DNA of 64,000 bases from Schmidtea polychroa. Its lineage: Eukaryota. Shown here one piece after another: positions 1,608 to 55,551 of this stretch (position 1 is the stretch's first letter; the number at the start of each line of letters is the position of its first letter). Location of the stretch: positions 135,408,001 through 135,472,000 of the forward strand of contig CM097886.1 in assembly GCA_044892525.1 (NCBI GenBank), given 5' to 3'. The notes beneath the pieces are model-generated. The model did no database searches and was not told the origin of the DNA. It saw only the letters and a program-made list of their open reading frames with translations. The translations under genes and the position numbers were made by a program.

Positions 1608-4600
1608 GTAATTAATTCTGGTCCATCTGTTAATTATTAAAATAATCAAATCGAAGGTTTTGCAAATTTCTCAAATAAATGGAATAGATTTAGAGAATTT
1701 CCACGTCGAACAAGTTTTCTACAAAAGTAAAGATGGAGTAGATATACCAATGTTTATCATGCATCACAGAGTGAGTATGAATTAATTGCAGGTGGGGAGT
1801 TACTTTGTATTTTCGATAGGATTTTGTCCGAGATGGAAACAGTCCATGTCGACTCTATGGGTATGGGGGATTCGATATTAGTATCAAGCCGAGTTTTGGT
1901 GTATCGTTTCTATTGTTGATGCAACATTTTCGATTTGTTTGCGCATTCGCAAATATTAGAGGAGGTGGAGAATATGGCGAACCTTGGCATAATCAGGGTC
2001 GATTGCAATTTAAACAAAATTGTTTTGATGATTTTATTAAAGCGTCTGAATATCTAATTGCTGAGGGATATACAAAACCTGAAAAGTAATAAGTTAATTA
2101 ATAATTTTCAAACTGCACAATAATAATAATCAGGCACGTAGCCACGAGTGTGACAGTGGGAAGACTTTAGTCCCTTAAATTTGGAGCGTAAATTAAAAGT
2201 TTTTGTTTTGAATTATATTTCAACATCATAATTATAAATTAATTTTTGTCATTTTTTAACACAAAGTCGTCATCAGTACATTTGAGATTTAATATAACTC
2301 AAAATAATTAAATTGAAAACGCAATATGCTCGCATGTAAGTAATGAACATTTTAATTTTTTTACAAATTTTATTAAATAAAATCCTGATTCGAGAAGACA
2401 AATGGGTCATATCGTACGAGTCTCGGTTTTTGTATGGTCAAGATTAGTTATTTTCCTTCCTTCTATTCTAAACTCAATAGAGCAAGGGTCTCAAACTCAA
2501 ACTGACCGGCGGGCAGCATTAGACTAGTATCATGAGTCAGCGGACCGCAACATAATTTTTTTTAAAAAATAAATACTCGAGAATGTATCATAATTGCAAT
2601 TTATTAGAAATAGGAAAAAACATTATTTTGAACATAAAAATGTAACACAAAATTATTTAAATAAAGACAAACAAAGCGTTAAATATATTATTTTTATTAC
2701 TGGTTACTCAGTTGGCAACTTTTAATCACCACAAGACCATCAATATTAGGAACAATCTTTTGAAATGTGACCAGTCTTAGTGTTGTCACTTAACTTTGTT
2801 TTGTTGAAGATTTGTTGAATTTCATCAATGAAAAAAATTGTTCACAAAGATAGGTTCTAAACATTGCAATAATCTTTACTGCCTGAGAATGCAACTAGGA
2901 AATCTTTCTTGTTGGAGATATGAATAAAACTCAAGAATTCCTACATCAAAATACTTTTGTTTTAAAATAGAATCACATTGAAACTTCACTAATTCCATCT
3001 GAATTTCCTCTGACACGAATTCAATATCAACAGCAAATAATGTTGAAAAAAGTTGGAACTGTGGTTCAAGCAATTATCAATTTTTCATTTTAATCTGTTT
3101 CCAACTCAACATCCATTTTTGATTTCTTCTTCGGAGGCATTTTATATATTATTTCTATTTTTTGGAACTGTTGAAAAAAATTGAGTAAAATTATTGAATG
3201 CGGATAATTCGTTAAAATTTACAACAATGATCAAAGTTTTTTATTATAACTTTTGATGATACTTTGTTTGAGTCAAATATTAAACTAAAAATATTATAAT
3301 TTTATAAAGTTTTTCTTTAATAAGCATTAATTAATAATATTGAAATAAAAAAAATTAATTAAAAAACTTGATTTTTAACTGCGATATGCAGTTCTTGTTA
3401 TTTAATTAATTGAATTTCAAATTATACTCTTTTTGGTAATTTATTAAAAAATCTTCGCGGGTAGCATGCGGTTCGTGGGCCGCGTGTTTGAGGCGCCTGA
3501 CGTAAATAATCAAAATTTAAAATAACTTTAATTGTCAAATATAAATTTAAATAAAAAAATTAATTCGATTTGAATTTTAATATTGAATTCTGATAAATTG
3601 CTTGGAGATTGTTTGATTCAATACCGAAAAGTTTGTTTCAATATTGTTGTCTTCTACATTAATTTGCATTATTATTAATAAGATGGAAGTAAGACGACTT
3701 TTTCAAATTCTATTTTTATCAAATTAATAACATATTAAAACAAAGTTTTTAAATATGTTATTATTAATATAAATATTAATTTAATATTTATATTGATTTA
3801 ATTAGTTTGACTACATAGCCCTCCACCTAGATCAAGGAGTGATTTGTTATTGGTTGGAATGTACGCGGGTTTTAACTTGTCTACCGAAACACGAAGGTTT
3901 CTTGTCGGAAGTTGAATTTCGAAAGTTTTGAGGTCTGGGCTTCGACTAATAATTTGGAATGGTCCATCATACATAGGCCTCAAAGTTGTTCTTGTTTCCA
4001 CTTTAAGCCATACATGGGTGCATGTCCTCAAATCCTGTGGAAAGAATGTTTTCCAATTTTGTTTTCTAGTTCTTTTAATTGTAGTGTCTCCAGGTAGTTT
4101 TCCATTGATTCCAAAGACCGCTTGGCTTGGTGATTGATTATTGTCTTCTGAAACGACATTTCGAAGCCCCAGTAGTACCAATGGTAGATCATTGGCCCAA
4201 TTTCTATTTGCATCTTCTGAATGTGTTCTCAAAGCCGTCTTGAGAGTTCTGTGAAATCTTTCAACTTTGCCATTGCATTGGGGATGGTATGGTGTTGTGT
4301 GTCTGTGATCGATGTTGTGCTTTTCACAGAATTCTCTAAATGTGGATGAAATGAATTGCTTACCATTTTTTGTGATCATTATCTCGGGGGCTCCGTATCG
4401 AGCTATCCACTCGTTTTCTACTGTTTTGGTTACTAAACTGCTTGTGATATCAGAGATAGGAATTGCTTCTGGCCATGAGGTGTGTCTGTCAATTATAGTA
4501 AGCATGAATCTTTTATTATTTACTGATGGGAGTGGGTCGACAATGTCGATATGAATGACTTTGAATTTTTCTGCTTCTGGAAGTTCCTTCAAGCTTGACT

Positions 4601-7600
4601 TTGTGTGTCTCGTCACTTTATTTCTTTGACACTTTTCACACATTCTACACCACTCCCTAATTTGTGCTCGCATACAGGGCCACGCATATTTTGACGATAT
4701 CAATTTTATTGTCCCATTTGCTCCTGGGTGGCATAAATTATGAAGCCGCTGGAATTCCCTGAATTGGAATGGTTCTGGCAGTATTATTCGAGGGGAGCCA
4801 GTAGACATATCCACTAGGATTCCGTCATCATCTATACTTATTTTGAATGAGTGATTTGGCTTCAAGGTTTGGGCGAATGATTGTTGTCTTTGTTGATTAA
4901 TTATTTCATTTTTTGTCATCGGCACAGTCTCAACAATATTGAGAGTATTGTTGTCTGAATTAGGTTGTCTTGATAGGAAATCTGCGACAATGTTGTCTTT
5001 CCCTTTGATGTGAATTATCTTTGCATCAAATTCGTTTATGAACTGGATCCATCGCCATTGTCTATTGGATGGGTCTTTCATTGTATTTATATATACCAAT
5101 GGCTTGTGATCGGTTAGTAATTCGAATGTATTGTCGTCCAGGTGATGTTTGAAATTTTTGATGGCTAAATAGGCAGCTAATAGTTCTCAGTCAAATGTTG
5201 AATATCTTTGTTCAGTTTTGTTGAGCTTTCTAGAGAAAAAACTGATTGGTGTAAGTTTACCTTCTGCCGTTCTGTGATTAAGGCTTGCACCAATTCCAAT
5301 GTCCGATGCATCCGTGCATACGATGAATGTGCGTTGCGAATCTGGAGGGATCATTTCAGTGATTTCTTGCAGTTTTTTCTTTGCCGTTTCAAAGGCTTGC
5401 GAGTGTTGATCTTTCCAGATATATTTACGTTTGTCTTTTACTCCGTTTGATGTCAGTTCATGTAACGGAGCCATTATATCCGCCAAATTCGGTATTAGCT
5501 AGTGATAGAATGTTACCATTCCAATAAATCGTCTCAGTGCCTTAGCATCGTCTGGCCTTGAACAGGAGGTGATTGCTTGAATCTTATCGGTAAGATTCCT
5601 GAGTCTGAAATGTGAAATCCAGGAAAGTTAACCTGATTTTTAGCCAAGCAGCTTTTATCTTTATTTATTGATAAATGTGCATCTTTTAGAACTTTTTCGA
5701 TTGTTTGCAAATGTTTTTCATGATCTTCATTCGATTTAGAGAAAATGATTATGTCATCGATGTACGATCTGGAGAACATCCTGTATGGACGTAGAAGTTT
5801 GTCCATGAATCTTTGGAAAGTTTGTGATGCGTTCCTCAGTCCAAAAGGCATTTTGAGGTATTCGTATAGTCCAAAAGGTGTAATTATTGCTGTTTTTGGG
5901 ATGTCGTTTGCTTCAATTGGGATTTGGTGATATGCCTTTTCCAGATCGATCGTTGAAAATATTTTGCTTCCCCCGAGTTAATCTAAGATGTCGCTTATTC
6001 TGGGCAGCGGATATTTGTCGACTTTCGTGACTGAGTTCAGGAGTCTGTAGTCACCGCATGGGCGTATTGATCCATCTTTCTTCTTAACTATTACCAATGG
6101 TGACGCCCAGTCACTCTTACTTTCCCTTAGGATTCCATTTTGATCAAGGTATCGAATTCAGTTTGAACGGCTTCAAGCATGCGTCCACCCAGGCGTCTTA
6201 CTGACTGCGCAATTGGTGGCCCAGTTGTTTCGATTGCCATTGCATGCTCAGAGCTGACTGAATTGCTTCTTTTATTAACATTTGTGATAGCTGTATTTCC
6301 GATGAAGATTTTAGCATTTTTGCAATCCACTAGAAATCTATACTATAATAGAAAGTCTGCCCCAAGAATTGGGCGAGAAACATCTGCAACGATAAATTCC
6401 CATTTGAAATGCTGCTTTTGACCTTCAATCGTAAAATGTAGAACTTTTGAGCCATGTACTTTTATCCTACAGTTGTTAGCCGCTATGAGTCTGATCGGTG
6501 CAATTCTGGAATCGGGTTTAAATATTTTTGTTGGGATAACGCTGACATCTGCCCCAGAATCAATGAGAAAATCATATGATTTATTGTCAGAGAGGACTGG
6601 AACAGTGAAAATTGCATTAATCTTTGTCGACTGTTGAGTTGAGCATTGGATCCCTGTCATCGACATTAACGAGATCCTTGGCCTTTTCCCGACTTAACTG
6701 AATCAGACCAGCAACACGGTTTTTGGCATTTCCTGGCTTTTATTCCGAATCGTCTGTGAAAATAACATATTGTTTCTTCACTCGAATGACGTTCCTTTCG
6801 AGTAGAGCTTTCGTTTGCCCTTATGGCATTGATTTGATCTTGCAGGTTCTCTATTGCAAGCTGATGGAAGTTTCCGGCAATATTTTGACTTCCCACCGGT
6901 GAGATATGCTGATCATTGATGCTTACGTGCAAGTTGGCGATGTTGGCCAACTCATCAATGCCAACGTTGCTCGATATTAGAAGGTATTGAATGTGAACTG
7001 GCATGGAGTTAATGAACTGATGTCTGAGAATTTTGCTCGTTTCTGGGTCACCATTGGGTTCCATTATTTTATTGTTTCTTTTTAATTCTCTAAGGAGTTG
7101 GCTTGGTTTACGATCCCCAAGTTCCTGTTTCTGTAAAAGTTTGTTTGCTGCCTCCGTTGTTGATCTTTTTGAGTCATTAATAATTGCTTCTTTAAGTGCT
7201 GAGTATGGCTGGAGTATATGTGGATCCATTAAATCCGAGTACTCTTCGAGAACGCGAGATGGTAAGCTGGTTAACAAGTGAAAATATTTGGTTTTTCCGT
7301 TTCTGATTGAGGCCAGTTCCAATGCTGCGTCCACTTGTTGAAACCAAACTGCTACATTGTCGAAAAATGTTGGAATTTTCATTTGAATGTGACTACTTTC
7401 TTGAGCCACACTTCTGACACCAATGTTGTCTTCTACATTAATTTGCATTATTATTAATAAGATGGAAGTAAGACGACTTTTTCAAATTCTATTTTTATCA
7501 AATTAATAACATATTAAAACAAAGTTTTTAAATATGTTATTATTAATATAAATATTAATTTAATATTTATATTGATTTAATTGGTTTGACTACAAATATT

Positions 7601-10600
7601 AAATAACATTATGATAAAGTAATACAGTTTGGAATATGAGTTCAATTACTGAATATGTTTTTCAAAACAACTTAAAAGATGTTCCAATAACATCCAACAG
7701 GGTTACTCTTAACTTAAATTTGTACTACATCTAAAATTTCCAGCTTCTTTGTTGATTATGAGAAAAATATTTCTGCACTTTAATATTTGCTACAAAGATT
7801 TTCTGATATCGAACCCGCAGTTGAATTTTATATATTATATTTCCAAGATATCTTAAAGTTATAAACAAATTTGGAAGGATAAATCAGAGAACGAATATCC
7901 ATTTACGGTGTTCGAAACATCAAAATGTAATCAGTGTATTTTTCACAAAGTTTACATTTTAATATAAATATTGTTGTGAGAATGTTTTCGATGTTAAAAG
8001 GATTAAAATGTTACTTATAGGAGAAAACCGTTTTGTTGGTCTTGCTCTAGTTGCAATATATAGAGATGTTGAATCAGAAATAATTTTTAAAGAAGTAATT
8101 GAAAATTTTGCAAATTCCTGCCAAATTAAAGAATTAATTCAATATTATAAAGTTTAATAATGAAAAGAATAAAATAAATAATTTTGAATAAAAAATAATA
8201 TGAAAAAATCATCATTTTTTTTCGTAGCCCTTCCTTCAAAAAGTCTTGACTACGTGCGTGATAATAATAATTTACATTTCATATAATTTTCCCAGCTTCT
8301 GTAAACTTATTATTTAAACTCCGTCAACTCCATTCTTAATTCAGAATAGAAAAATTTAGATAATTAGTGGGATTTTTCTTCAGATTAACGATTGAAGGTG
8401 GAAGTAATGGAGGTCTTTTGGTTGCTGCTTGCATGAATCAACGACCAGATTTATTTGGTGCAATTATTGGTCACGTTGGAGTTCTGGATATGTTAAGATT
8501 TCATAAATTTACAATCGGCCATGCTTGGGTAAGTGATTTCGGTGATCCGGATATTCCTGAACAATTCGAATGGATTATAAAGTACTAAAAGAATGCTTGT
8601 TCATGTTTCGATTAATTTCTAGATATTCCCCACTTCATAACATAAAACCGCATACTTCCTATCCTGCTTGCTTATTACTCACTGCAGATCATGATGACAG
8701 AGTCGTACCGTTACATACTATGAAATTTATAGCTCAACTACAAGAAACTGTTGGAGAAATTACTAAAAAGCCTTTACTTGTTCGGATCGATGTCAAATCG
8801 GGGCATGGGGCAGGAAAGCCCACAATGAAATGGGTCTATATTTATTAAATTGAATATTTTACTATTATCATTTGATAGAGAAAGTCAATTATACGGTAAC
8901 ATTAAAATAAAAATCTCATCCAGTCGATTTAAATTAAGTTATTTTAAAATTTTAAATTGATTATGTAATAATAATTGAGCAGAAAAATAGAGTTATGTAA
9001 CATAAATAGTGGGACAAATGACCTTATTATTTAAAATATTTTATTAAATTCCTTGACTTTGAAAAGTGGAAATCAAATTCTATTTTGTGTTCTTAATATC
9101 GGAACTAATCTGGAACAAAAATACTTTATCTATTTTTTTAATTTTCTTATAAAAACAAATACAAAGTACAAATTTTTAATTTATTAAAAAGAGAGCTTGA
9201 AGACTAAACCAGTAATATATCGATGTTTTTTGATACTCACGAATTTTCGGCACTGCCTTTTTCAAGTAATTTTGATCATTATTGCATTTACCAATTATTG
9301 TTGGGGAAAAATAAATTTATTTCGCATTTTATAATAAATTCATTGGTTTTTTAATATTTCCAATTTATTATATTTTATTTTATAAAAAAATGTTTTTTAA
9401 TTTTTATATATTTTAATTTTAAGTTTTAAATTTAAATCTAATTTCATATAAATGTCTCAGGGATTTTTTAAAATTTATTTGAATGTTGAAAATAAATACT
9501 CGAGAATGTATCATAATTGCAATTTATTAGAAATAGGAAAAATACATTATTATGAACAGTCTATGCGGCTAATCTTTGCAATGTATTTTTGAACGCATCT
9601 TGTAACATTTTGCATTTGGTTTCGTATATGAGTGGTGCACTTTTTTCCAGTGTTCGTGATAATTGCTGATTTTGCTTTTCATGCGTTCGTTGAGTCTTAA
9701 CATTTTATAAATTTTATTTATAATTAAATCGTCTGTGAGGCTGCTTTTCAATCTACATTTTCTTGGGCTATAAATAAGTGATTTAAATGAGAAACTTCTC
9801 TCAGCTTCGGTTGAACCTGGTTAACATATGGTTAATAACTATATTGTTTCGTATATTGGTTCCGTTTTGTCTAATAACTTGTTCACATACTTTCTAAGTC
9901 CTTCAAATTCGTTTGTTAATTTCTCTGGAGTCAATTAAACTTTGAACTCTTGAAGACATTGTTCAATTTTAGTGAAATTGAAGTTCCCGAAGATGGTATC
10001 GGTCTTGTAAATTCAAATCAGAGGAATAAGCTGGTTGGAGCAACATCTTAATTCTCTTGTGGTTTAAAAATAATGCTTGTGGAGTAGCAATAGTATGCAT
10101 TCAAACAATCGAGTGTCTTCACGATATGTAGTACTGGATCGGGACCAGTTTCTAAGTCGATTTCATTCTGATCTTCTTTGTTAGTTTGTGTTTGATGTTT
10201 CACAACTTTTTGTTCAATTGGTGCATTTGTAGCCTGTTTGCAACGATGTGCAACGTCATATTTCAGAACCTCACCTTCCCAGAAATTCATCAATCTTGCC
10301 TTATTTTTCTGTGTTATAGCAGCATAAGTTTTTAATAACTATTCTACTTTTGCTGCCACATTATCCTCTTTCTTAAATTTATTCCAAATTTCGGTGACTT
10401 CCCTTTGACAATCCAGCTTAAGTTTGTTAGGAAATGCCTTTACATAGGCTTCAAACAACAACCGGTAGCAGTTTCGTTTGTTCATTCTTGATCTAATAAA
10501 ATATGAGAATCTGTTATTTAAAATATTCTTTCATTTTAAATTTTTATAACAAATTTTAAATACAGTGGTAATTTGTTTTGGAAGTCGTTTCGTAACGTGA

Positions 10601-13625: not shown

Positions 13626-16600
13626 TGTTGGGCCAAGCTTCGAGAGTATTGCAAAACAGGTTAAGGATGAATAAAGGGGATAAAACAAATTTCACGAAAA
13701 GCGCGAAAAATAAAAGAACAAATAAAATTAGATAAACATAACAGAAATAAAGGGAATAAAAATAACTAATGAAAATTATAAAAGACGAAAAATAAGATGA
13801 AAAAAGAAAAATAACGCACCACACATAATAGCAGAAGGGAATAAAATAATAAATTTAAAGAAAATAAACCAGAAATTAGGAAATAAAATAAATAAATCAA
13901 ATAAATACATAAACTAATTAAAACAAAAATTATACTATAACCAAAAAACAATAAAGTCACAGGAAAAACAGGAGGGAAATAATAAAAAAATAGAAAAATA
14001 AATAAAATTATAATGAAAAATAAGAAAAAGTCATTAAAATATACCTTATTACATTAAAAACATAAAAATAACAATAAATAATAATATTACACGCAAGTCG
14101 CGTCCTGATTGGACGGAAAATAATATAAAAGAAATGGAAAATATCTGTAGAGTACCATTTAACCAAACTGCTCTACAGGTAAAAAATATTTTTTGAATTG
14201 ACCATTTAACCAAACTGCTCTACAAATTAGGATCTACGAATCACACAGGAACCACTTAGCAAACTTCATCGAACAGATTTACAGGGACTATACTTAAGGA
14301 AAATTATTCATACAGCGATCGAGATTTCTGCAGAATATTAGTACATTTAACTTGGAAGAGAAAATCTAGACCTAAATTTTCAATACTCTCGAAGGAAACT
14401 TATCGTAAGTGGGATGAAAATTTTGATTTATGATTGATTTATATAAAAATGATTGAATAAAATACTTTATTTTTAATAAAAATTTATGATTACGAAGATA
14501 TTATCTCTCTCCATGCGGCTGGCGACGATGTCGTCTGGAAATCGAACATGATGCGGAGATGTGAATAAATTTTCTAGGAGATACTCGTAGACGAGCGATG
14601 AAAGTAAAGACATCGAATTGAGAATTTGAATGAATTAGATCTCACTGGGAATGGAAAATGAAAGGTACGATGAGTATTCCGACGTTTTACCATGTTCGAA
14701 ATTCAGGCGGCGTGGTCGCCGGTTAAGTAATTATGTTATATAATAGTAATATCCCAATAATATTGAGTTGTCTGATGAATTATACTATTTAATTTTGATG
14801 ATTATTTTTGAAGATGATAGAGATGTGATGAGATGGAATTGTCCTTCCTGACGGTCCAAGAATGGCGGCAGCGATGCATGCTGTTCTTGGGTGAGCCAGG
14901 AGGGGTGAGGATATCTGGTGAATGGCGGAATGTGGTTGTAGGAACCGATCTTTTCATCGAGTGCGATCCACTTTTGAAATCGTCGAAAATATTTCCAGTA
15001 TAACGAGTTACGGCCATTAAAGCTTAGGTGGAGGAACAATCCATAAAGAAAATGCATAAAATTGGTAAATTCATAAAATATAGACATTATATCAAATTTT
15101 CCTTTTTTCCGTCTCGTGATTGAAAATGAGCCATGATTTGAACTTGTCTTCGAATCGTGTCGAAATATCCAACCGACAGAGATCTGTATTCGCGCGATGT
15201 CATCGATAAAATTTCATGGAAAATTGGTGAAGCCTTAGCCTTATAAGGTGTGAATCACTAGGATATTGGCGATGAAACCCATCTATGATGCACTTTTGGA
15301 CGGAATAATCAACTCTTGTACTGCTGATAAGCTTTAATTTTCTGAAAATAAAGTAAACAACTCCCGAGGAATTATCAGAGTATGAAGGACACTGCTGTCA
15401 GAGTTATCAACTCAATGTTGAACGAAGCCCAGTCAGTTTTTGAGTAATCGAATGAGACGACCAACAAAAATCCACTACGCGAGATAAGGTGATAATTTCT
15501 GAATTGATTCATTAGTGGGCGTAACGACAGGAGTGCCCGAGCCCGCGACACGATAACAGACGAATCGGCAGTCCCAACTTATTGATAATCTTCTACATCT
15601 ATCATTTTCCATCTACGACAATTACCCACAGACACTATCGTAGGGAAATTCTGAGTGACTCCGTCTTGAACATGCATGCAATTTTACACTCAACGATGAG
15701 ATTTCTTCCAGTAGGGCGACATAAAATTCGAACAGAGATGTGTGTGATATCATCAGGATTGCGTAAGAATAGGGAATGTCACCGGAGATGTAGGGCTGTG
15801 TGTAAGAGTAGAATAATGGACCGCATCATCGTGGAGCAGTACGGTATTGACTCTGCTAGACTAGGATAGGCGAATAGTTACTCATACCAATCACAAATTT
15901 AGACACACCAACTCACCTAGTAGGGATGAATAATGATATGATAATTCACACAGATAGGCGTCGTCATGACGACGATTTCCCGTGCATATTTAAAAATCAT
16001 TTTATTTAAATTTGGATTACGCTTTTCCATAATATATTTTCGAGTATAAGCGTTGAAGTGAAATAATTTCGCCCAATTAGTATGCACGATACCGAAGTTA
16101 GAAGTGGGATTAATTAAACTGATGTGTTAAGGCCAGGTTTAAAAAGTTAAAGCTATAAAGCGACGAAATGAGATAAATATCGATAAAAATTCAGAATTTG
16201 AAATCTGAGATGTTAAAATTCATCGTTGTAATTGAATCATCTACAAATCCTCTTCGTTTCAGATAATTTGACTTAGCGCAACGCCGGGGAACTTAGGTTA
16301 CCTCCGATTTTTAACTGACCTAAACCCCGTAAAATCGCCCAAAAGGAGTAGCAGGATATGATTGATTGTAAAAGAGGGACGCTTTAATGTATATGATATA
16401 ATTTTGTTCTATATATATAAAACGAACGGCCACCATATTTTCAAGTACACAATAATGCAAATTAGCGGCTACATGATAAAGGTAAATTCCCCACCCGAAG
16501 ATAAATTTGACCCTTTCACCCACGAATGAGTTGATGTGAGGCGTTCCGTTTCTTTTCTCCGAAAAACCGCTGCATGAATGTATTAGTTCGGATGTTTGGG

Positions 16601-18031
16601 GTTGAATGGATCGCGGCACGATCACTGGTACGTACGCGTGAGATTAGCTTTGATGTTTTTGTCTTTATGCGAGATTGATGGAATAAACTTCATGTCGTAA
16701 GAGTGTCACTGAAAATTTCATAATGCCTGATGTGCGAGAATAAATGACCACTCCAACCAAGCCCGGAAATACCCTTCGACCTTGTTTTTCCTGTGCCGAT
16801 AAAAATGCAGATATCGCACAGCTGCACTTATACATCGGGGAATTAAAGAAGAGAATTGACCTATACGAAGGAACGCGGTTCTCCCCGCCACAAATGAAGG
16901 AAGAGAAGAGCAAAATTCTACGTTCGGAGCACTGCCGTGACAGTCTCCTAGAGGAGAGCAGATGCCAGAGGCTAACCATAAAAGCCCAATCAGAGGCACT
17001 GCACAAAGTATATTCTGAATCCGAGATAGCGAAGCGAGTTCGCGAATATCCAATTCAAGATGGGACTAACGTGTTCCCAGGACACCATCAATCCGCGGAA
17101 ACCTCATCAACAACCAGTTGCAAGGGGCACGGCCTACAACTACCACCAATTCCCGCCCCAGTCCTTTCTGGTTATCGGCCTATGGCTGGCGGTCCATCGG
17201 ACCCTATCTTGGCTCCAGTCCTCGTGTCGCCACTCACTCAGCCTCCAGCAGAAGCCACATTTCCACATCGAAAGCGTAAGAGACAGACGCGCTCAGAGAA
17301 AAATCAGAAGCGCAGAAACGCCATGGCCGCGCTCGAAGCATCGTTATCCGCAGCCAAGTCGACTATCAATGAAATTACAAGCACCCATTCCATCCCTACG
17401 AAAGAAGTATTTCGGGTAGTTCCGGCCGACAGCATCAAATTCCTCGAAGATCGACATTGACGAAATGGTCGCAGAAGGAGAAGTGTTTTCGTAACGAACC
17501 TTTCCCATTGGCCTCAATTTTCCGTGCAGTATGAAGGAACTCGAAGAAGTTGACGTTATCCTGTACATGACCTTTGATGTTTTGTTCTTATTTAATAAAT
17601 GGTGAATGTATCTTTATGTTTCGCTTTAATACCACTGTTCGAATTCTTTGATTTTGTCCATAGTATGTGTGGTTTGCTGTAGTTGATTTGAGTAAAAGAT
17701 GCTCCTGGAGACATAGTACGAGCTTAAACGTCGTCCCTTTGGACCAGGGTCGGACGGAATTATGGGTGAAGAAGCGGGTAAGACCTTCTAAGGCACCATG
17801 GAACCCGAACCGAGAAAGGGTTAGGAGTAGTCCTAAGGCCGGGGCTCACCTGCTAACCTTTTCCGACCCGTGTAAGCAGCACCAACGTGGAACATCACCA
17901 CGGGCTCATACGTGGGAATATGTATTTGATCATTTGGAGTATGTATGGGAAGTGGCTGAGCGGAAAATAGTACTTGGTATGTACAATGATCATGTGGGCA
18001 TATCTTTTCTCTTTCCCTACATACCCCAACA
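13626..18031 (+). mobile_element. giant (4406 bp) solo-LTR-like element, copy A
   Basis: TGTTGGG...CCCAACA termini; 4-bp TSD TAAT; colinear homology blocks with 43972-49539 (reverse complement). Confidence 0.75.
16744..17494 (+). CDS. unknown ~250-aa protein inside element A; small frameshifting deletion near the C-terminus
   Basis: Homolog of 44503-45264 with mostly synonymous differences. The frame stops at 17460, but the homologous tail IDIDEMVAEGEVFS* continues in another frame to 17494. Confidence 0.8.
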
Positions 18032-30329: not shown

Positions 30330-31984
30330 GGGCAGACCAATTTTGCGGAGGGGCAATATGAACTTGTAGAAGAATACATACAGCTGTTGACAGATACTAA
30401 AGTACAGCGCCACTGTTTCGTTTGAGGAAACAGCATACTGGACCACGAGATGCAGCTGATGGTTAACCCTTTCGCCCCTATTGGGACAATACGTCCCAGA
30501 AACTTTCATCATGATCCTACTGGGATATTTTCAAAGCAGTTTGCGGTGTTATCCCAGGTTATTATCCTAGGACTTTCTAGGATATTCAGAAGCGCCACGA
30601 TTACAAAAATGAGAATATTTCATATTTAGGTCAATATTAACAAGTTCCAATATATAAATTTAGCATAGTGTCATTAGCGGAAAGTCGGTGCGAAAGGGTT
30701 AAAACAGTGAATATAAGGCACTCTGCGATGAAGCCGCTGTTGCAGAAGAGATTGGATTCCACCTTTGTGTCCGGAATTGACACTGGCTCCGTCATAACAC
30801 TGAGCCAATATCCTATCAAGACGAATCTTGTTCTTCTGGAGATGATTGATCAATAAGTGTGTCAAACTCTCTGCATCCAGCTTAGATGTGTCTGCAATAC
30901 ATAACAAACGTTCACGAACTTTTCCCTTGAGATCGACAAATCGTAAAACAATTGAGATATTTTCAATTCCGTTTACATCCTTTGTGCCATCACACATAAT
31001 AGTGAACCAATTGTCATCCAGTTCTGTTACAATTCTTTCTTTAACTAGATCAGCCAAGTGGTGAATAATTTCATTTTGAAATTGGGCTGACGTGTAAGAG
31101 GCATTCCGAGAAATGGTACTATATACACTTGCTAAGTATGGATCCTTCTGCAAAGTGTATTGAAAGAGTTTAACAAATAGACCACATGGCTCAGTTGGCT
31201 CTGAAGTATCATCAACCACACTGCCTAACTTTTGAAGCCCTGCCGAATCTTGAGTACCTCGTAGAGGTAATTCATTCGCTGTTAGGAAGAAAATTATGTC
31301 CATCATTGATCGAACATAGTAGCGGTTCCTCTCGCACTGCTCATCATTCACCTTAGTACTAACTTCCTGTCCCATTAGTTGTCGATGTTGTAAATCTTTT
31401 AAGAGTGCCATGGCGGTTCCATGAGCCTTCGACTTTTCATGCTTTACTAAGCCTCGCTTCCAGTTCCGATAGCCTTTGTGAGTAAAAGCAGCTTCTGATT
31501 CCGCCTGGTGTGTCGATATACATCCAAGATGCGAGAACTTGTAACACGGAAAGCAAAATGCCGCATCTCGGATTTTACTATATTCCAGCCAATCGTGATT
31601 GTTGAACCATGCTGGGTTGAAGCGACGTTCAACTTGACCAAACATTGTTTTAGGGTATGCTGAAGGGAACAATTTTGGCTGCATAGGCTTATCAACTCCG
31701 AGATCTAGAGGTCGTTCTGACTGAGATGACAATGAAACTAGCTGAGATGATAATAGAACTGGTTCAAATGAAGAAGAAATTGGTTGTGAGGATGATGGAT
31801 CGGTATCAGATGATGACAGAATTTCATGAGAGGTGTCATCTGCTGAGTTTATCTGATTACAAATGAGTGTCTTTTCTCCAATACTACTTTTAGGTGTTGT
31901 TGGGATATTGGTGACAGCTGTAGTCATCGGGCTTTTATTCGCACAAGTGGATAACTTTGTGACGAAGAATTTTCGTATGTCCAT
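30330..31984 (-). pseudogene. hAT transposase (TTF zinc finger, DUF4371), interrupted by a MITE and 3'-truncated
   Basis: RRFNPAWF..HDWLEYS..DAAFCFPC; CDGTKD; QCYDGAS; HCFN|HQLHLVV resumes after the MITE. Confidence 0.88.
30467..30698. mobile_element. piggyBac-type MITE (232 bp)
   Basis: TTAA TSD on both sides; TIR CCCTTTCGC(C/A)CC; removing it restores HCFNHQLHLVV. Confidence 0.9.
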
Positions 31985-43971: not shown

Positions 43972-43973
<2 letters not shown>

Positions 43974-44502
43974 TTGGCGTATGAGGGGAGAAAAGGAAAA
44001 TTTAAAAATTTTATCACCAGATATATGATTACGTGTATTTGACTCAGACCTTTCCCCGATCATACTCCTATTGACTTTATGAATATTCCCTCATGTGAGC
44101 CCGTGGCTCACGTTGGTGATGCCCACACGGGTTGGAGTTGGTTAACAGTTGAGCCCCTGCCTTAGGACTACTGTTAATCCCCTCGTGGTTCGGGTTCCAC
44201 GGTGCCTTAGAAGGACTTACCCACATTCATACATAGCTCGGTCCGATTCTGATCGAAAGGAACGACCTTCAACCTAATTACCTTCATTCCGCAGCATTAT
44301 TTCGTTTACCCCGATTGCACAATCAAACATATGGAAACTTTACAAAACCAAAACAAACACAAAAAAATATATTGACACCGAAACGAAAATACATTACAAC
44401 TAATAGATCGACAGCATTTGAACCATTAGAATATGCAATATTGTCAAAGTTTGCAAGCCAATTTACAACTCGAAGAAGAATTCGAGATCAATTGTAAGCC
44501 GT

Positions 44503-45264
44503 TTAGGCAAAGCCATCCCCGTCGGCAATCATCTCGTCGATGTCGACAGGTAATCGACAGTCCGATATAAATTTGATGCCGTTGGCCGGAACAATGCGGC
44601 AGATTTCTTTCGAGGGGATTGAGTGTGTGGACGATATTTCTTTGATCTTCGAGTGTGCCACTGATAAGGACGCTTCGAGTGCTGTTATTGCATCTCTGCG
44701 CTTTTTATTCTTCTCTGCCCGGGTCGGTCGTTTTCGTTTCCGAGACGGCGGGTGATTTTCGGCCACTGAGGTCACAACGGGGGCCACGAGGACTGGGGCC
44801 AGAATGGGATCCGAAGGACCGCCTTTCATTGGTAGATAGCCCGACAGTACTGGGGCTGGGATGGGCGGCAGATGTGAGCCATGCCCCTGACAATTTGTGG
44901 TGGAAGATGTAGAGGACTGGTGGTGGAGAGGGAAAACGTTCGTTCCATCCACGACAGGAAATTCGCGCACCCGTTTGGCTAGTTCTGCCTCCGTATAGAC
45001 CTTGTGGAGGGCTTCGGACTGGGCCTTTATTGTGAGTCTTTGACAGCGGCTCTCCTCCAGGAGGCTGTCTCTGCAGTGCTCTAATCTGAGGATCTTACTT
45101 CGCTCTTCTTTCATCTGTGGCGGGGAGAACCACGTTCCTTCGTAGAGGTCTATTCGTTTCTTGAGAGCCCCGATATACAAGTGAAGTTGGGCGATATCCG
45201 CGTTATTGTCAGCACAAGAAAAACACGGGCGAAGTTCTTTAGCATTGTTGGACGGTGTAGTCAT
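44503..45264 (-). CDS. unknown 253-aa protein inside element B (CxxC, coiled coil, Pro-rich segment, RKRKR basic patch)
   Basis: Intact ORF; high amino-acid identity to 16744-17460 with abundant synonymous changes. Confidence 0.85.
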   Translation of the reverse strand: MTTPSNNAKELRPCFSCADNNADIAQLHLYIGALKKRIDLYEGTWFSPPQMKEERSKILRLEHCRDSLLEESRCQRLTIKAQSEALHKVYTEAELAKRVREFPVVDGTNVFPLHHQSSTSSTTNCQGHGSHLPPIPAPVLSGYLPMKGGPSDPILAPVLVAPVVTSVAENHPPSRKRKRPTRAEKNKKRRDAITALEASLSVAHSKIKEISSTHSIPSKEICRIVPANGIKFISDCRLPVDIDEMIADGDGFA

Positions 45265-46525
45265 CTAGAAATTTAATCATTTTTCAGGCGCAGTCGCAAT
45301 ATTCATTAGCGTAGCATTTACGATTTAGAACATAGGCTTAAAAATTTCATCAATCGTACCACTCTTCCCCCATATCTCGGCGCTTCACATTCATTCGGTT
45401 ACGAAAAACTTTCAAATTTATTTACCTAATTATGATAATTGAGAAAAGAAAACGGGGAAATCCTCGAATTTAATTTACTCGACATAAAAATTTTCAGGTT
45501 GGATAGTCCCCACCTATTACCCTTTTAGTTAATTGTTATTGGTAATTCTACCTTTTTTATAATCCGAAAATAATTAAAAATCCAATTCTTGGTATCGTGG
45601 TTTGTCGATTGGTGCATGCCTAATGTAATAGAGTCGGAATTCGGTACCATTTATATTTATTTGTGCGATATCAATTCCAATCAACGCTAAAAAATTCAAA
45701 ATATGCTATACAAAAATGCGTGATAAATTAAAATATAATTATTTACAAAGCGCGCCGTAGTCGTCGTCATGGAGACGTTTACCTGTAGTCATGCATTATG
45801 AATGAATTTTAAGCGTACTAATACTCCTTGTCGCACCTGTGGTTGTGTATTGGTTATTACAGCGAATGATTATTTATGCTTTTTGGAGAGGTTATTAAAT
45901 GTCAAGTTGAGAAATCCATTCCTTTACCCCTGCCTACCGTCTCACTGTTTTTGGAAAAATTCATGTTATCACGCAATCATTACATCACCAAAAAATTTTC
46001 TGCCCTAATCGTAGATTTATCTGTATGCTGCCTTGCGCAGAATTGACGGGTGTGAACGTGTGTATGTGCCTTCCTAAGTCAGAGTAATATGGATTGCATA
46101 ACAGCTTCCTTAAACAAGCAGCAGCCGTAGACAGATCGGGAGAGTCAGATTAAGCATCATGAGTAGGCGACAAATCAGTAGATTACTGAGTAAGCTTGAT
46201 TTTATTATCCAACTCCTTTTTACGATGTTGATTTAGGGCAACAACTATCGACTTATTCGATCGACAATTCCTACCAGAAAACCGATACACTATCTCCCCT
46301 TCTAAGACATTATCAGCTATCCACGTCAGCTAACTCCAAGCTGGCTAAGATTAATCGACGAATTTTGTTATCGTTGGCAACTATCTCCTTCGAGCTTATA
46401 GTGAGTATTTTTATAATTTATTACGAGATGTTTACTCCTCTGTCAGAGAGAAATTGCTTATCACTGATATCGGCAATTCAAGGATAACAGTTCAATTTAA
46501 GAGTACACCGACGATGGATGTAGTC

Positions 46526-47462
46526 CAGTGTTTCCCAACCTTTTTTAGCTCATGTCCCCCCTAGCTGAATTTTTTTTTCTTTTGTCCCCCCTATGCAAAA
46601 CATTTTACAGTTTTTAAAAAATTTCCAACTATTTTTATTGATATACGTAATTAATAGATAAAGATTAATTTTTTTATTCAATGAGACAATTGACTCTGAT
46701 GGTTACTGCAGAGTGATTTAATATTAGGTTCGAAGTTGGTAAGTTTAAGCCTTAGATCTCCTCTTTCAATGATATCTAAACGATTTCTCTTCTTGATAAG
46801 TAAATCATTAATTACACTAAATCCACATTCAGATAAATCGTCGGTTTAAAAGCAGAAATCACTAAGTCAAAAAACTCACTAAGTCAACTTTGATTGTATT
46901 ATAATAGCACGATTGACTTAGTGCAATAAATGTCCGCCTAAAAACCTCAACAATATCAATTTACGACTTATAAGATTTTGCCCATATAAAGTTGGCATTA
47001 TAATGATTTAATTTAGTACAAAAAATCAAAATCTTGGAAAATGTACTTAGTGAATTTAGCTTGTAAAACAACGAAATAGGTAGTGGGAAATGGTAATAAT
47101 AGTTTTCTTGCATAAGATGTTGACATTGGATATTATTTATTCATCTCATCGCTAAGCCATGCCATTATCCCTTTCAAACCAAACAGATTTTTTATTGATT
47201 CATCGTTTTGAATCTCAGCGATTTCTTCTATATATTCGAAATTTTCGAATTCTGCCAAATCTATAAGCATCGTCTGTGTTATCCAATTTGGGAAGATAAT
47301 TTCTTTTAAGTCTGAAAACCTCTCTTCTAAGTCTTCTATAAGTAATTTTAAATGGTCAAGAATCAAACCTAAAATTAACATATATTCCCTAAAATTGAAA
47401 TTGCCCCCTGGAAATACAAATTGCCCCCAAGTGGGGCGTGGGCCCCACGTTGGGAAACACTG
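46526..47462 (-). mobile_element. non-autonomous Buster-type hAT (937 bp)
   Basis: 14-bp TIR CAGTGTTTCCCAAC; perfect TSD ATGTAGTC; transposase remnant 47133-47381 (EERFSDL...FPNWITQ). Confidence 0.93.
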
Positions 47463-47888
47463 ATGTAGTCGCTAGCGTCCTGGCGACACAAATCAGATAG
47501 AACCTCGGAAATGCAGTACGTTACAGAAAATGGTTGGAATTTCTCGCAAACTATGGTCGACAAGTTCTTTTTCTAACTACTCTGACCGACAAGCCGAGTA
47601 TGGAAAAGGGCTCTTCTACCTATGTGGATTCTTACCATCAATATGGACATCAATGTCAATCTCAATCTGAGTTATCCTCCTTTGGAATTTAATCATCTTT
47701 ACGACTATTGGAGATTTCGGTGTGACTGAATGAAACGATGGGATGCTCTATAAACGATCGCACTCGATGAAGGAAATTTCACTTCCCAACTGGATCTCGA
47801 CCTACTGAGTTTCTTCACCCCTCATGACACACCCAAGAACGGCATTCATTTCTGCCACCGCTCTTGCACCGTCATGAGGGAGCAATCC

Positions 47889-48523
47889 ACTCATTTCCAT
47901 TCAATTAAATCAACAATTTGTGCAAAATTTATATAATGATCAAAAATGAATGATGGGTAAATGAATAAATAAAATTTACCCGGCGACCATATCATTTTGG
48001 CTCCAAGTATGATGTCTCCCTTTCCATACAATCGCACGTTTGCTCGTAACATTGGTGAACATCTCATTCTGTTTCCACGTTTGCGTTTATGTAACACATA
48101 TTTGTAGGTCACTAAATTCTTAACAGCATATCTAGACATGCCCAAAATGGTGCCAATTGCACCATAACTGTTACCTTCCTCTTTCATCTTTATAGCAACT
48201 TCCTTTAAATCTGGAGATCTCATAATCAATTCTAAAATTAATATAAACATTAAAATCATATAAAGTAGTATAAAAAAATAGGTTAAAATTATTAATACTT
48301 AAAAATCTTTAAAGTGTGCTAAAAATTGTGTCGTATTTTAATTTTTAATAAACCTAAGAGTTCAAATATTATTTAAACTAAAAATAATATATGTCTAAGT
48401 AGTGATAATTATTAAAAGTATTACTATATTAATTACAATCATACAAAATTTATTTCATTTATTACATTATTCATGATTTTGTAACGAAATTTCTTACTGT
48501 GCTAAAAATAGTGTCGGGCAGTA
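47889..48523 (-). mobile_element. Tc1-like transposon 5' fragment
   Basis: HTH ORF (RSPDLKEVAIKMKEEGNSYGAIGTILGMSRYAV); one TIR ending GTGTCGGGCAGTA|TA with an internal repeat at ~48316; other end missing. Confidence 0.65.
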
Positions 48524-49789
48524 TATTATCATTTTCTCGAAGCATCTAATTTTTACGACATCTTCTGGATGCATATTCTGAAAATTTCTCGCGGCCGTGT
48601 TTTCCGCCGTGGCATACCTCTGGCTCGTCCACATCATACCTGAAGCTCCCAGATGGTACAGTCGCCTGCACCATGAAGAAAGGCTGTTTTTCATTTGAAT
48701 AAATTTATTGTATGAAATTGTTTTTAATCATATTTACAAAAAAAAATAAACCAGATTAAACCAACAACCATAAATAAATCAACTGCTGAGACATACCTCA
48801 AGTTTCGAAAACTTGATTAAATCGATTGAATTTGGAATTTGTCCTGAATAGATTTGTCGTTTGATTACTATATATTCCTTCCTAGATTTGGTTTCGTAGT
48901 CTCTGGAATAGTTCGCTGTTGGATAATTGAGTTAAATGTTCCGTAATCTGTAGGGTCTTGGTTAAGTTGTTTGGTAGGCTGTAGAGTATTTTTAAAAAGT
49001 GGTCAAATAATCAACAAAATTTTACCTGTAGAGTATTTTTTAAAAGTGGTACTCTACAGATATTTTCCGTTCCTTATATATTATTTTTTATTATAATATA
49101 TTAGATTTTAATGACTTAACTTATTTCTTATTATTATTTTATTTATTTTCTTATTTTTATTATTTTTCTCCTCTTTTTTCTGCGGATTTATTGCTATTTT
49201 ATGGTAATATAATTTTTTGTTTTAATTAGACTTAAGGATAGTTTTATTTTTATTTATTTCTTTAATTTCTCGTTTATTTTTCTCACTTTTTTGCTTATTC
49301 TATTTCTACTTTATCCGCTGTGTGCCTTAAATCATTTCCCTTTTGTCTTATTTCCAAATCTTAGGGGTTTTATTTATTTTGGTTACTTATTCCTATTTCT
49401 TTTGTTGGTATTTTATTGTTTCTCCCTATTTACTACTGAGATTTCGCGATAATTTATTTTTTATCTTATTTCGTTTATTTTTCCGAGGTTCGTTTCCCTA
49501 TTTGATCCAGTTTTCTCCACTTCAAAATTTAGCCCAACAATTATTATTATTATTATTTATAATATTAATTTGTAAGTAGTCAAACATAAGTTTTCGCCAT
49601 GGATCGATTCCAATGGGGGATGGGACACACTAGTCGAACTTGCCCAGAACGCACAAGAAATAGAGCAAGCCAAAGCGAAAGTCAAATGTTATATGCGATT
49701 AGCTATGGAAGTTTTATTATATGCAATGTGTAAATATTTAAATAAAAGTTAATGTTATTTATAAATATTATACTTAAAATATACACTCA

Positions 49790-50320: not shown

Positions 50321-50740
50321 TTAAAATAGCTGTGGAAGTCTAGCAGACATAATTTTCCAAATTGGAGAATACGCATCATTATTATCAACTTTATGTCCTT
50401 GGATTGCAATTGTTATATACCAATTTTCGTTTTCTTTGAAGCTGATTTCATCAAAGGAATCATAAAATCTTGCATATCGGTTGTTGAACCTTGTGTGCTG
50501 ATTACATGATAGATTCGTATCAAACCGTTTGAAAACCTCATCAATAGATTTAACATCTATCATTGAAAGTGTGCCGGATAAGAATTGAAATTGAGTAGGA
50601 ATTAACTTGATCGGTGACACCAATTTCATATTGATTTCTTCTTTTCAAAAATATATTTTGTCGTTGTGGAACATTTGAACAGGTTGTACAAGTTCTGGAA
50701 TAACTTTTGGTTTTTCAGTACTTAAAATTTTCTTTGCCAT
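50321..50740 (-). pseudogene. unknown Polinton ORF (~139 aa, one internal stop)
   Basis: ATG at 50740 is in frame with the 102-aa track ORF, separated by one TGA. Confidence 0.5.
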
Positions 50741-50920
50741 CGTGAATTATGAATAAAATGAAATGGTACAGGGTTTTTATACCTTCAACTTGTGCTTATC
50801 AACCAATCAGATTATTTAAATTGCATTCAAAATGCATAGATGTTGCATTGTGACATGTTCTATTATTAATGTGTCATATTAGTAATGTTTTTATTATTAT
50901 TACTATTCTCAAACTATTTC

Positions 50921-50988
<68 letters not shown>

Positions 50989-51030
50989 TTATCATCATTT
51001 CTATTATTATTTTTATTACTATTACTATTT
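50921..51030 (+). repeat. (ATT)n microsatellite, imperfect
   Basis: Visible. Confidence 0.9.
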
Positions 51031-51063
51031 ACTACAAAAACAAAAATAATTAACTATAAAGAT

Positions 51064-51474
51064 TTATTTTGACACAATTTGACTAGAATGATAAATTCGA
51101 AGAGTCTTCACCAAAGACCATTCAACATATCTGTGGTAGCGGAAATTGCAACAGCTGCATCCAAAAATGCAGGGGTCATCTTGTTTCACTTCCTTCATTG
51201 TTCTTCCAATCTTCACATCCCAGAGAAATGTATTGATGATATCGAATATCCAGATTCGGTTTTCGTTGTAGATTAAATCTGGAATTATTGCAGCATCTCG
51301 ATCTTTTAGAATAACATACATTTGTGGATAATAGAAGTTTAATCTTTCAAGTATTATTGTCTGATATTCATCTGTAAATAATATGATAAATAAAAGTAAT
51401 AATAAAAAATTAAATTTACCATAATGTTCAATTTCTTTCATGGCAGTTATTGCAGAGCTTTGAATATTGTACAT
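51064..51474 (-). CDS. unknown Polinton protein with GCSCC motif; probable 48-nt intron at 51372-51419
   Basis: Homolog at 37318-37510; GTAAAT...TTTACAG segment at a conserved position. Confidence 0.6.
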   Translation of the reverse strand: MYNIQSSAITAMKEIEHYGKFNFLLLLLFIILFTDEYQTIILERLNFYYPQMYVILKDRDAAIIPDLIYNENRIWIFDIINTFLWDVKIGRTMKEVKQDDPCIFGCSCCNFRYHRYVEWSLVKTLRIYHSSQIVSK

Positions 51475-51501
51475 TTTTAAAAACTGTCATGTTTTAAACA
51501 A

Positions 51502-52044
51502 TCAACAGCCAATTAGATATCGAACAATCAGAATGATGCCTTTTAATTGCACTGAATTTGCAATCACATGATATTTTAAATAATTAATTGATAATAAAAA
51601 ATCTAAAAATTCTTTTCCTTCAATTATTGATTTTATTTCAGATATGATGTTATCAACTATACATTTGTAATCAATACTTTTTACGCCAAGAATTAATATC
51701 TTTCCACTAGCAAATATATTATCACACATAGACTTATATTTTATATATATCAAAGCTGGAAATAATTCTGGCTCGTAAACGAATGCTATTAATTTAGCCA
51801 AGTTATTTAAATTACAAGAAAAACCCATGTCAGAAGTTACTGTCATCGATTGTATTTCTAAATCATAAACATTATATTCACTAGCTTTGATTATTTCCTT
51901 ACATTCCATAATTCTAAATTTACCAGTTTTGAAATATATTATTGGATATTTGTTACTTCTATTGATAATTTGTTAGGGTTTTCCATTTGGAAATATCATT
52001 TTTGATACATCAGCCTTTGCACTGTAATTTATATTTGAAAGCAT
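51502..52044 (-). pseudogene. TATA-binding-protein-like gene in the Polinton, one premature stop
   Basis: Repeat 2: EIQSMTVTSDMGFSCNL...YEPELFPALIY...IFASGKILILGVK. Repeat 1: IIYFKTGKFRIM. TAA at 51973-51975 in codon 24. Confidence 0.8.
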
Positions 52045-52139
52045 TTTAATGAAATAATTATAAAACTCGGATATATATAGTTATTTTTAAAAGGAGTTCA
52101 CTTAAATTATCGATATAAACAAAAACTATATAGTTTAAA

Positions 52140-52764
52140 ATGGAATTGAGAAATGATGCAGTATACCAAATCATTGGTCCGAGTGGTAGCGGAAAAACAT
52201 TATTTGTTTGTAAATTACTAAAATCAAATTTGTTCAAAACAAAATTCACCAATATTTATTGGCATAGGGACGCCGACGAAGAACATGGCTTGACACAATC
52301 AAGTTTCTGTCAGTTGAAAAACATGAAAATAGTAAAGGGATTTGATAAAAACTGGTTCAGTCGGTTGAAGAAAGGTGATGTCATCATTATCGATGATTTA
52401 TATCAAGAAGCCAATAAAGAAAAAGATTTTAATAATTTATTCACAAAAATCAGGAGACATGTTGGTGTAACAGTTATTTTCATAACACAATCTATTTCAT
52501 CAAGGTGTGCACATCGAACATGTAATTTAAATGTACAATATTTAGTTATTTAGAGATGCAACTGTCATTGATTTTCTTGGACGACAAGCATACCCTAATA
52601 ATCGTAATTTTCTTATCAATACATTTCAAGATGCTACTAAAATACCGCATGGATATATATTTCTCGATTTCACACAACAATATCCTGATGATATACGGGT
52701 AAAAACAGATATTTTCAACCCAAAGGGTGCCATGGTTTATAAACAAAGTTCAAAACAATGTTGA
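52140..52764 (+). pseudogene. Polinton A32-like DNA-packaging ATPase, frameshifted near 52495-52550
   Basis: Walker A IIGPSGSGKT; Walker B IIIDDL; ITQ; downstream FRD...LGRQ.YP...ATK.PHGY.FLD...R.KTDIF. Confidence 0.85.
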
Positions 52765-55515: not shown

Positions 55516-55551
55516 CAGGGATAGCCCAAGAAATGGACGACCAGGCGGGAG

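Follow-up and report, generated by a model that had tools for sequence, protein, structure and literature searches.

The locus studied here raises the question of whether an open reading frame (ORF) lying inside a giant long terminal repeat (LTR) of Schmidtea polychroa is a real gene, to what kind of element it belongs, and what its product might do. The window, meaning the whole stretch of DNA analysed, is 64,000 nucleotides long (contig CM097886.1 of assembly GCA_044892525.1, positions 135,408,001 to 135,472,000), and coordinates count from its first letter unless LTR positions are given. It contains two solo LTRs, A and B, each with one copy of the ORF:

13626 to 18031, forward strand: solo LTR A, 4,406 bp, with TG...CA ends and a 4-bp TSD (TAAT)
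16744 to 17460, forward strand: LTR ORF copy A, 238 aa, splice acceptor lost, frameshift near 17450
43972 to 49539, reverse strand: solo LTR B, 5,568 bp; its intron 2 carries two insertions, and a CCAAT box is missing
46526 to 47462, reverse strand: 937-bp insertion in intron 2 of B, MITE-like in having terminal inverted repeats
44503 to 45264, reverse strand: LTR ORF copy B, 253 aa, intact frame, AG acceptor immediately 5' of the ATG

LTR A is ~89-90% identical over its full length to its sister LTRs L079 and L083, and ORF copies A and B share 71% DNA identity in a self-comparison of the window. The initial annotation had described a protein-coding gene at 16744..17494, under strong purifying selection, from a comparison of the two copies. 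Recounting codons 11-40 returned exactly its figures (11 identical, 17 synonymous and 2 non-synonymous), and the pattern does continue downstream as it had said, with 25 identical, 31 synonymous and 9 non-synonymous among codons 41-105. The start that it gave is right but the end is not, because a frameshift near 17450 closes the frame of copy A at 17460; the stretch 17461-17494 is an out-of-frame end, and 17494 is the family stop in the shifted frame. Copy A is also the only one of 60 copies lacking an AG acceptor before the ATG. A functional accessory gene under purifying selection is supported, but the selection acts on the replicating lineage and not on the window copies, of which A is broken.

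Elsewhere in the window we found a small gypsy element with 171-bp LTRs of 99% identity (3645-7594), hAT-like transposase remnants (30674-31984 and 58312-60213, with DUF4371 in the first), a Polinton-like fragment in which an A32-type ATPase adjoins a TBP-like ORF (50321-52553; Pfam TBP, E 5e-12), and a decayed copy of another env-bearing gypsy family (52971-56799), whose intact members are ~15 kb long, with 1.1-kb LTRs, a 3,350-aa polyprotein and a 720-aa ORF behind pol. Exons at ~8380-8830, 5 kb upstream of LTR A, carry a motif by which we take them to resemble prolyl oligopeptidase.

The best 150 of 5,879 and of 6,882 candidates from genome searches with A and B were scored, figures that are not copy numbers. 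The dN/dS check over genomic copies that the annotation had named gave an omega of 0.142 for 75 stop-free copies. Over the whole ORF, pS is saturated at 0.78 and pN is 0.155. The sense frame has a pN/pS of 0.19 and 0.06 stops per copy, the other five frames having 5.6-10.8 stops per copy. The frame is fully open in 74 of 80 copies, a sample chosen by protein similarity and biased towards intact frames. When variants in the 80 distinct copies were separated by their distribution, those private to one copy had a pN/pS of 0.88 (104 synonymous, 288 non-synonymous) and those common to at least three copies had one of 0.10 (339 synonymous, 112 non-synonymous). Since private changes are neutral and common ones constrained, selection acts during replication of the element, in the replicating lineage, and copies decay neutrally after insertion. 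A domesticated host gene was considered and rejected, as the private pN/pS of 0.88, which pools 80 copies and to which single co-opted loci are invisible, indicates no selection at a fixed locus. Among 34 aligned LTRs (out of 45 fetched, the others having no found end or falling outside 4.0-4.6 kb), codon periodicity (~0.9/0.85/0.5 by codon position), with almost no indels, is confined to LTR positions 2894-3658. No periodicity indicating an upstream coding exon or an antisense gene appeared elsewhere in these LTRs, and the ORF is the only coding exon of the 4.2-kb LTR.

Many genome matches are paired, 26.4 kb apart, and four such pairs are the two LTRs of a single element; the ORF is present in both LTRs of full elements and in many solo LTRs. 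The element E2 (30,552 bp) has 4,195-bp LTRs that are 99.98% identical and a 4-bp TSD; it encodes a polyprotein of 4,626 aa, has five more ORFs, and carries the LTR ORF at LTR 2894-3658 in both LTRs. Pfam places in its polyprotein a Retrotrans_gag domain (51-144), an env-like fusion glycoprotein domain (1869-2208) in frame between Gag and protease, RVP (2398-2489), then RVT_1, RNase H and rve, and ankyrin, and the accessory ORFs include RING and RING-TRAF proteins, with the MATH/TRAF domain on a separate 462-aa ORF behind pol. By its size, LTRs, polyprotein order and cargo domains the element is an env-bearing gypsy of Burro/GYPSM1-like architecture. BIR or BCL2-like motifs had no Pfam match in E2 at E 0.05, the published motifs coming from other methods. 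A 159-aa RING protein lies behind the primer site (L035:8991-9470), and three E2 ORFs of 345, 233 and 208 aa (L037-L038) fall in no Pfam family; all of these accessory genes, like the RING-TRAF one, have low pN/pS and an acceptor adjoining the ATG. Three ORF copies also occur at regular 20-27 kb spacing (G000 C2:37.31-37.38 Mb, C1:72.65-72.70 Mb and C158), probably as tandem elements with common LTRs.

A second active lineage carries a gene in the same place of its LTR, with 35-38% protein identity. Between the two lineages (L185-L188 against L035-L038) RT is 98% and Gag 91% identical, the LTR ORF 38% and the RING ORF 45%, a contrast suggesting that an LTR-leader module has been exchanged or is evolving fast. 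An ORF so diverged beside a nearly constant RT could be taken for a host-directed effector, acting for instance against PIWI or heterochromatin silencing, or for cell survival, and having no cis target in the element. The RING and RING-TRAF genes that accompany it would fit, as would the repression of Burro by SMEDWI-2 given in the available text of PMC8532177 and the protection of stem cells ascribed at second hand, in the available text of PMC13465017, to the RING/BIR region of Burro1. However, selection within the lineage is strongly purifying, and no host homologue or mimic was found; moreover, the neighbouring RING ORF is equally diverged (45%), and therefore the divergence may reflect exchange of the whole LTR-leader module. 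We consider a host-directed role plausible but unlikely.

We mapped the following promoter, splicing and poly(A) features in the two window copies:

14105 to 14130, forward strand: putative promoter of A, a CCAAT box (reverse) and a TATA box, each of them found in all 34 aligned LTRs
14154 to 14178, forward strand: exon 1 of A, non-coding; its 25 nt run from TATA+30 up to splice donor 1 and are placed by the donor position
14201 to 14225, forward strand: second copy of exon 1 in A, at the end of intron 1, co-evolving with the first
14226 to 14404, forward strand: exon 2 of A, a non-coding leader that extends to splice donor 2 at 14405 (this donor occurs in 32 of 34 LTRs)
14475 to 14480, forward strand: AATAAA within intron 2 of A, which may serve the genomic RNA as poly(A) signal and probably marks the R/U5 border
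17628 to 17633, forward strand: site of a weak second poly(A) signal 3' of the ORF, degenerate in A
49026 to 49080, reverse strand: TATA box and exon 1 of B
48791 to 48799, reverse strand: splice donor 2 of B; L212, a copy of the same subfamily, joins the exon end straight to the ATG
48704 to 48709, reverse strand: AATAAA within intron 2 of B
44368 to 44373, reverse strand: weak poly(A) signal AATATA 3' of the ORF of B

The CCAAT and TATA boxes lie near LTR position 500 in all 34 LTRs (promoter module ~500-570), and a GT donor follows the TATA box by 54-57 nt in 30 of them. The 25 nt before this donor recur ~47 nt downstream, with the repeat starting at TATA+29 to +31 in 25 of 30 cases, and the identity of a repeat is 0.96 to the copy in its own LTR against 0.67 to those in other LTRs. 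The second lineage has the same layout with a different sequence. We infer that the repeat is exon 1, recopied on transfer of the spliced 5' cDNA to the 3' end, although slippage between the repeats would be an alternative. With exon 1 recopied, the co-evolving duplication would make the start site and the first splice readable from DNA alone, and transcription would start around LTR position 540, 30 nt past the TATA box.

In 32 of the 34 LTRs the start and donor 2 are 150-290 nt apart, and the leader is nearly free of ATG (4 in 7,268 nt, with ~130 expected). At the other end of intron 2, AG directly precedes the ATG in 59 of 60 copies, as it does for 2.9% of random ATGs. In one element on C3, the 2.2 kb between donor 2 and the ATG, bounded by GT and AG, are missing precisely from both LTRs, and L212, a C1 copy from the subfamily of B, has the same exact exon 2-ATG join. 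The exon 2-to-ATG splice is therefore recorded in two independent reverse-transcribed copies, and at the level of genomic sequence the ORF is spliced from a short LTR leader. A search pattern for this join had six matches, which comprise three true joins in two elements, one acceptor variant and two that do not belong to this gene; a second such pattern had none, and a direct exon 1-to-ATG pattern had five, two of them in the LTR gene and both acceptor variants. The ends of three other large LTR deletions examined (L010, L071 and L095) ignore splice sites. RNA contigs from four runs cover the LTR, with GT..AG ends at 0 of the 15 joints listed, out of 57, and their depth cannot rank its parts.

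Behind the stop, AATA(A/C/T)A occurs at 127-150 nt in 32 of 34 LTRs as a weak second poly(A) signal; no poly(A) run 3' of the ORF was found in 105 loci entries. The short mRNA would thus consist of exon 1 and exon 2 spliced to the ATG and end at this signal, ~135 nt behind the stop. The AATAAA of intron 2 is present in 30 of 34 LTRs, two of the misses being mis-anchored, against 14% of background windows. In many copies this first AATAAA is flanked by TTTATT (window ~14465-14490 and 48698-48709), which therefore provides a poly(A) signal on the antisense strand as well. If the genomic RNA ends at the AATAAA of intron 2, R measures ~300 nt and U5 3.3 kb, with the gene in U5; if not, the gene is in R. 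The ORF is ~2.3 kb downstream of the putative promoter (LTR ~2900 against ~500-570) and the gene is therefore in U5 or R and not in U3, so that the comparison in position with MMTV sag and HIV nef made by the initial annotation is not supported, the ORF being downstream of the promoter and spliced from a leader. With leader, ORF and poly(A) signal all within the LTR, the protein would be produced, and early, from a 5' LTR or from an intact solo LTR alone. The same leader may serve other genes. Among the accessory ORF starts of five related elements, 32 of 33 have YAG within 10 nt, against 32% of background, which suggests that one leader is spliced to many element genes. The genomic RNA therefore keeps many splice sites, and a regulator would be needed. 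Overall, the sequence evidence identifies the ORF as an accessory gene of a Burro/GYPSM1-like element, with its coding exon spliced to an LTR leader and its frame maintained by selection in the course of replication.

Intron 2, which the short mRNA would lack, holds the stems and hairpins among the following structures:

14519 to 14722, forward strand: long-range RNA stem with a variable loop in intron 2 of A, with two-sided pair changes
14843 to 14903, forward strand: conserved RNA hairpin in intron 2 of A, with two-sided pair changes
17721 to 17960, forward strand: most conserved non-coding block of LTR A, structured (LTR 3900-4100), with a donor-like GTAAG at 17778
47980 to 48668, reverse strand: long-range stem of B, with a ~460 bp insertion in its loop
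47819 to 47880, reverse strand: conserved hairpin of B

In the long stem (LTR ~855-1110), 13 of 29 pairs have two-sided changes across 32 LTRs, and in the hairpin (LTR ~1240-1325), 11 of 25. In the hairpin, 97.6% of cells are paired, against 44-51% when the pairing is slid, and none of 500 shuffles reached as high a value; the structures were derived from the same alignments used for the pair counts, and relatedness inflates the shuffle and slide controls. One-sided changes yield G-U on the sense strand, pointing to that strand, and the intron 2 structures had no Rfam match at E 1. The genomic alignments thus place covarying RNA structures within the removed intron 2. In the block at 17721-17960, 12 of 45 pairs have two-sided changes, and it is the only stretch of LTR DNA that can be aligned between the two lineages.

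The initial annotation had recognised no known domain, and our searches, among them the AlphaFold and Foldseek check that it had proposed, likewise assign the protein to no known family: neither Pfam nor PDB nor the fold comparisons gave a match. Pfam returned no match and a single-sequence search no homologue among 1,449 candidates; the ESM Atlas gave a best value of 0.85 and no usable match for P0003; PDB profile searches gave nothing, or E 0.097 and above, PHROGs nothing under E 0.005, and Foldseek against viral and PDB sets no match at E 0.001; a VIA fold comparison reached a top Z of 10, among generic helical hairpins. Viral and metagenome contigs held no relative, and the homology searches no host homologue or mimic. 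The motifs it had named are present, CxxC in 73 and RKR in 72 of 74 full-length copies, and EGTWFSP is the family form of another. CxxC, FPxHH, CxGH, RKR and an acidic tail each occur in 72-74 of the 74 copies.

AlphaFold2 predicts helices at 15-42, 48-101 and 182-213 with good confidence and disorder in the rest (pTM 0.31-0.35). Residues 8-115 of B are predicted to form an in-register parallel homodimer that includes Cys14 and Cys17 (0.61, against 0.01 for the best control), with at least 94% contact agreement between runs and pLDDT of at least 83, zinc not being scored. Of the solved pairs, 21 of 30 reached the mark used, and none of the 23 single chains did; among eukaryotes it was reached by 17 of 29 overall but by only 1 of 7 without an older solved relative. 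Residues 14-93 are accordingly predicted by the model to be a parallel coiled-coil dimer capped by CxxC. A coiled coil of this length could belong to a structural or particle-associated component (scaffold or chaperone), whose basic stretch could condense RNA, but a separate short spliced mRNA outside the polyprotein is poorly suited to such a part. The related notion that the frame is kept for a non-protein reason would call for constraint at the RNA or DNA level, which is excluded because synonymous sites are saturated (pS 0.64-0.8). We regard either version as highly improbable.

A basic helix (~175-195) is predicted in both lineages, with a net charge of +9 to +12 in most proteins and mixed K/R here. 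A profile search recovered 11 remote homologues (E 3e-10 to 6e-5), which have the coiled core in common and lack the N-terminal CxxC; in most of them an arginine-rich stretch aligns to the basic helix of the LTR ORF. In nine of the 11 the homologous part is fused to host domains to which it bears no relation, the outcome one would expect if a mobile exon had been drawn into gene models by splicing. Pfam REV matched 2 of the 25 members of alignment A5 at a best E of 0.00072, below the cut-off (P0004, 19.1 bits against 22), and these matches are probably compositional. A conserved leucine-rich NES was not found: the class 1d pattern occurs in only 10 of 74 copies, the class 1a pattern only in 2 remote homologues, and none of three second-lineage proteins has any NES pattern tested. 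A bZIP is defined by an invariant Asn and Arg at a fixed distance before a leucine zipper. This spacing is absent in alignment A1, with bZIP_1 matching 1 of 25 members at E 0.038, and the assignment was rejected. The basic motif makes a nuclear location plausible, and the basic helix may be a nuclear localisation signal only.

Taking these results together, we tentatively favour a Rev/CERV-like regulator that would bind the structured leader RNA of its element and serve the production and export of long intron-containing RNA, because the mRNA is spliced, a dimer and a basic helix are predicted, and the structures are confined to unspliced RNA. Nuclear import and RNA binding would fall to the basic helix, and recruitment of a host factor to the acidic tail. 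The regulator mRNA would carry neither the structured elements nor the first AATAAA, both of which the genomic RNA would retain, and an early-to-late switch would therefore follow. That a gypsy element can employ a regulator of this kind is known from CERV (available text of PMC10309623). Nevertheless, the family in this genome has no conserved NES, the structured RNAs may instead be packaging or dimerisation signals read by Gag, and related env-bearing gypsy families with 1.1-kb LTRs do without the gene, no homologue of the LTR ORF being found in four elements of two families among those listed.

The acidic-hydrophobic tail, present in 73 of 74 copies, fits an activation domain equally, and the protein might be a transcriptional transactivator of the LTR promoter, as foamy virus Tas and HTLV Tax are, that sets up early positive feedback through a dimer, a basic DNA- or factor-binding helix and an acidic activation tail. 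The tail persists in the second lineage at 35-38% identity, and among the 16 G000 proteins of A5 there are 9 whose best 15-mer has a net charge of -4 to -7. The predicted dimer agrees with this design too, as does a splice donor that precedes the poly(A) signal, the order given for foamy virus in the available text of PMC3694450; because the NES is missing and the tail acidic the transactivator stays a close rival. However, the protein shows no known DNA-binding fold, the bZIP spacing is absent, the promoter already has CCAAT and TATA boxes, and the remote homologues have an arginine-rich helix. Such a helix is more typical of RNA binders. On balance we judge a transactivator rather unlikely.

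The regulator that we favour can be set against known systems. Burro1/GYPSM1 is described in the available text of PMC6431247 as a planarian gypsy-like element of >30 kb with multi-kb LTRs, an env-like domain before the protease, ankyrin and MATH/TRAF. E2 is alike in size, multi-kb LTRs, single polyprotein order, and ankyrin and MATH/TRAF domains, and differs in having TRAF on a separate ORF behind pol. The LTR gene is absent from the available text of that description, although a figure may show one, and the available text of PMC13238120, PMC8797187 and PMC10558129 contains nothing about it. In the published literature we found no description of a Burro-type LTR gene, Repbase, figures, supplements, Grohme 2018 and Lee 2026 being beyond the scope of the search and possibly annotating one; nor did the literature searched contain any LTR in which a whole spliced gene follows the promoter. 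Elements of this type are known, the gene is real, and the protein family is new as far as searched. The sag gene of MMTV and nef of HIV lie in U3, upstream of the promoter, and the LTR genes known to us all lie in U3. Here, as there, the coding frame overlaps an LTR and is expressed by splicing, but the LTR ORF is downstream of the promoter, and therefore promoter, leader exons, ORF and poly(A) signal are all contained in a single LTR. Solo LTRs, usually dead remnants, would in this case be potential protein-producing units. Foamy virus Tas is a small protein with a basic region and an acidic tail, encoded outside the LTR body with an internal promoter. These last two traits set it apart from the LTR ORF, to which no homology was found, whereas a donor before the poly(A) signal, which the available text of PMC3694450 gives for the foamy virus LTR, and a Tas-like basic region with acidic tail are points of likeness.

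With HIV Rev, HTLV Rex and MMTV Rem the gene shares a small protein made from a fully spliced mRNA, a basic helix, a predicted oligomer and a structured removed intron. Rex and Rem are Rev-type proteins with these traits, and those of Rev are as summarised in the available text of PMC10309623. It differs in lacking family membership and a conserved NES, in its long CxxC-capped coiled coil and in lying wholly inside the LTR, and by its sequence it is not classed as a member of the Rev family. CERV of Cer1 in C. elegans, a gypsy accessory protein made from a spliced mRNA and required for genomic RNA export, is alike in its spliced mRNA, Cys motif, KRKK-type signal and predicted multimers, but has 517 aa, exons common with Gag, a place before the 3' LTR, and M and G domains (available text of PMC10309623); these features were not seen in the LTR ORF, and CERV was not among its homology matches. 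The setting is a stem-cell model in which Burro is repressed by piRNA/SMEDWI-2 (available text of PMC8532177) yet reported, at second hand, to be anti-apoptotic and to aid regeneration (available text of PMC13465017). A defined protein with two candidate RNA targets would bear on how a 27-kb intron-rich RNA evades splicing, early polyadenylation and nuclear retention. It is possible, and we advance it with reserve, that the LTR is a self-contained circuit of promoter, spliced leader, new dimeric RNA-binding regulators and their cognate RNA elements, with solo LTRs supplying a Rev/Tat-like factor in trans, that would have arisen independently of both retroviral Rev and CERV.
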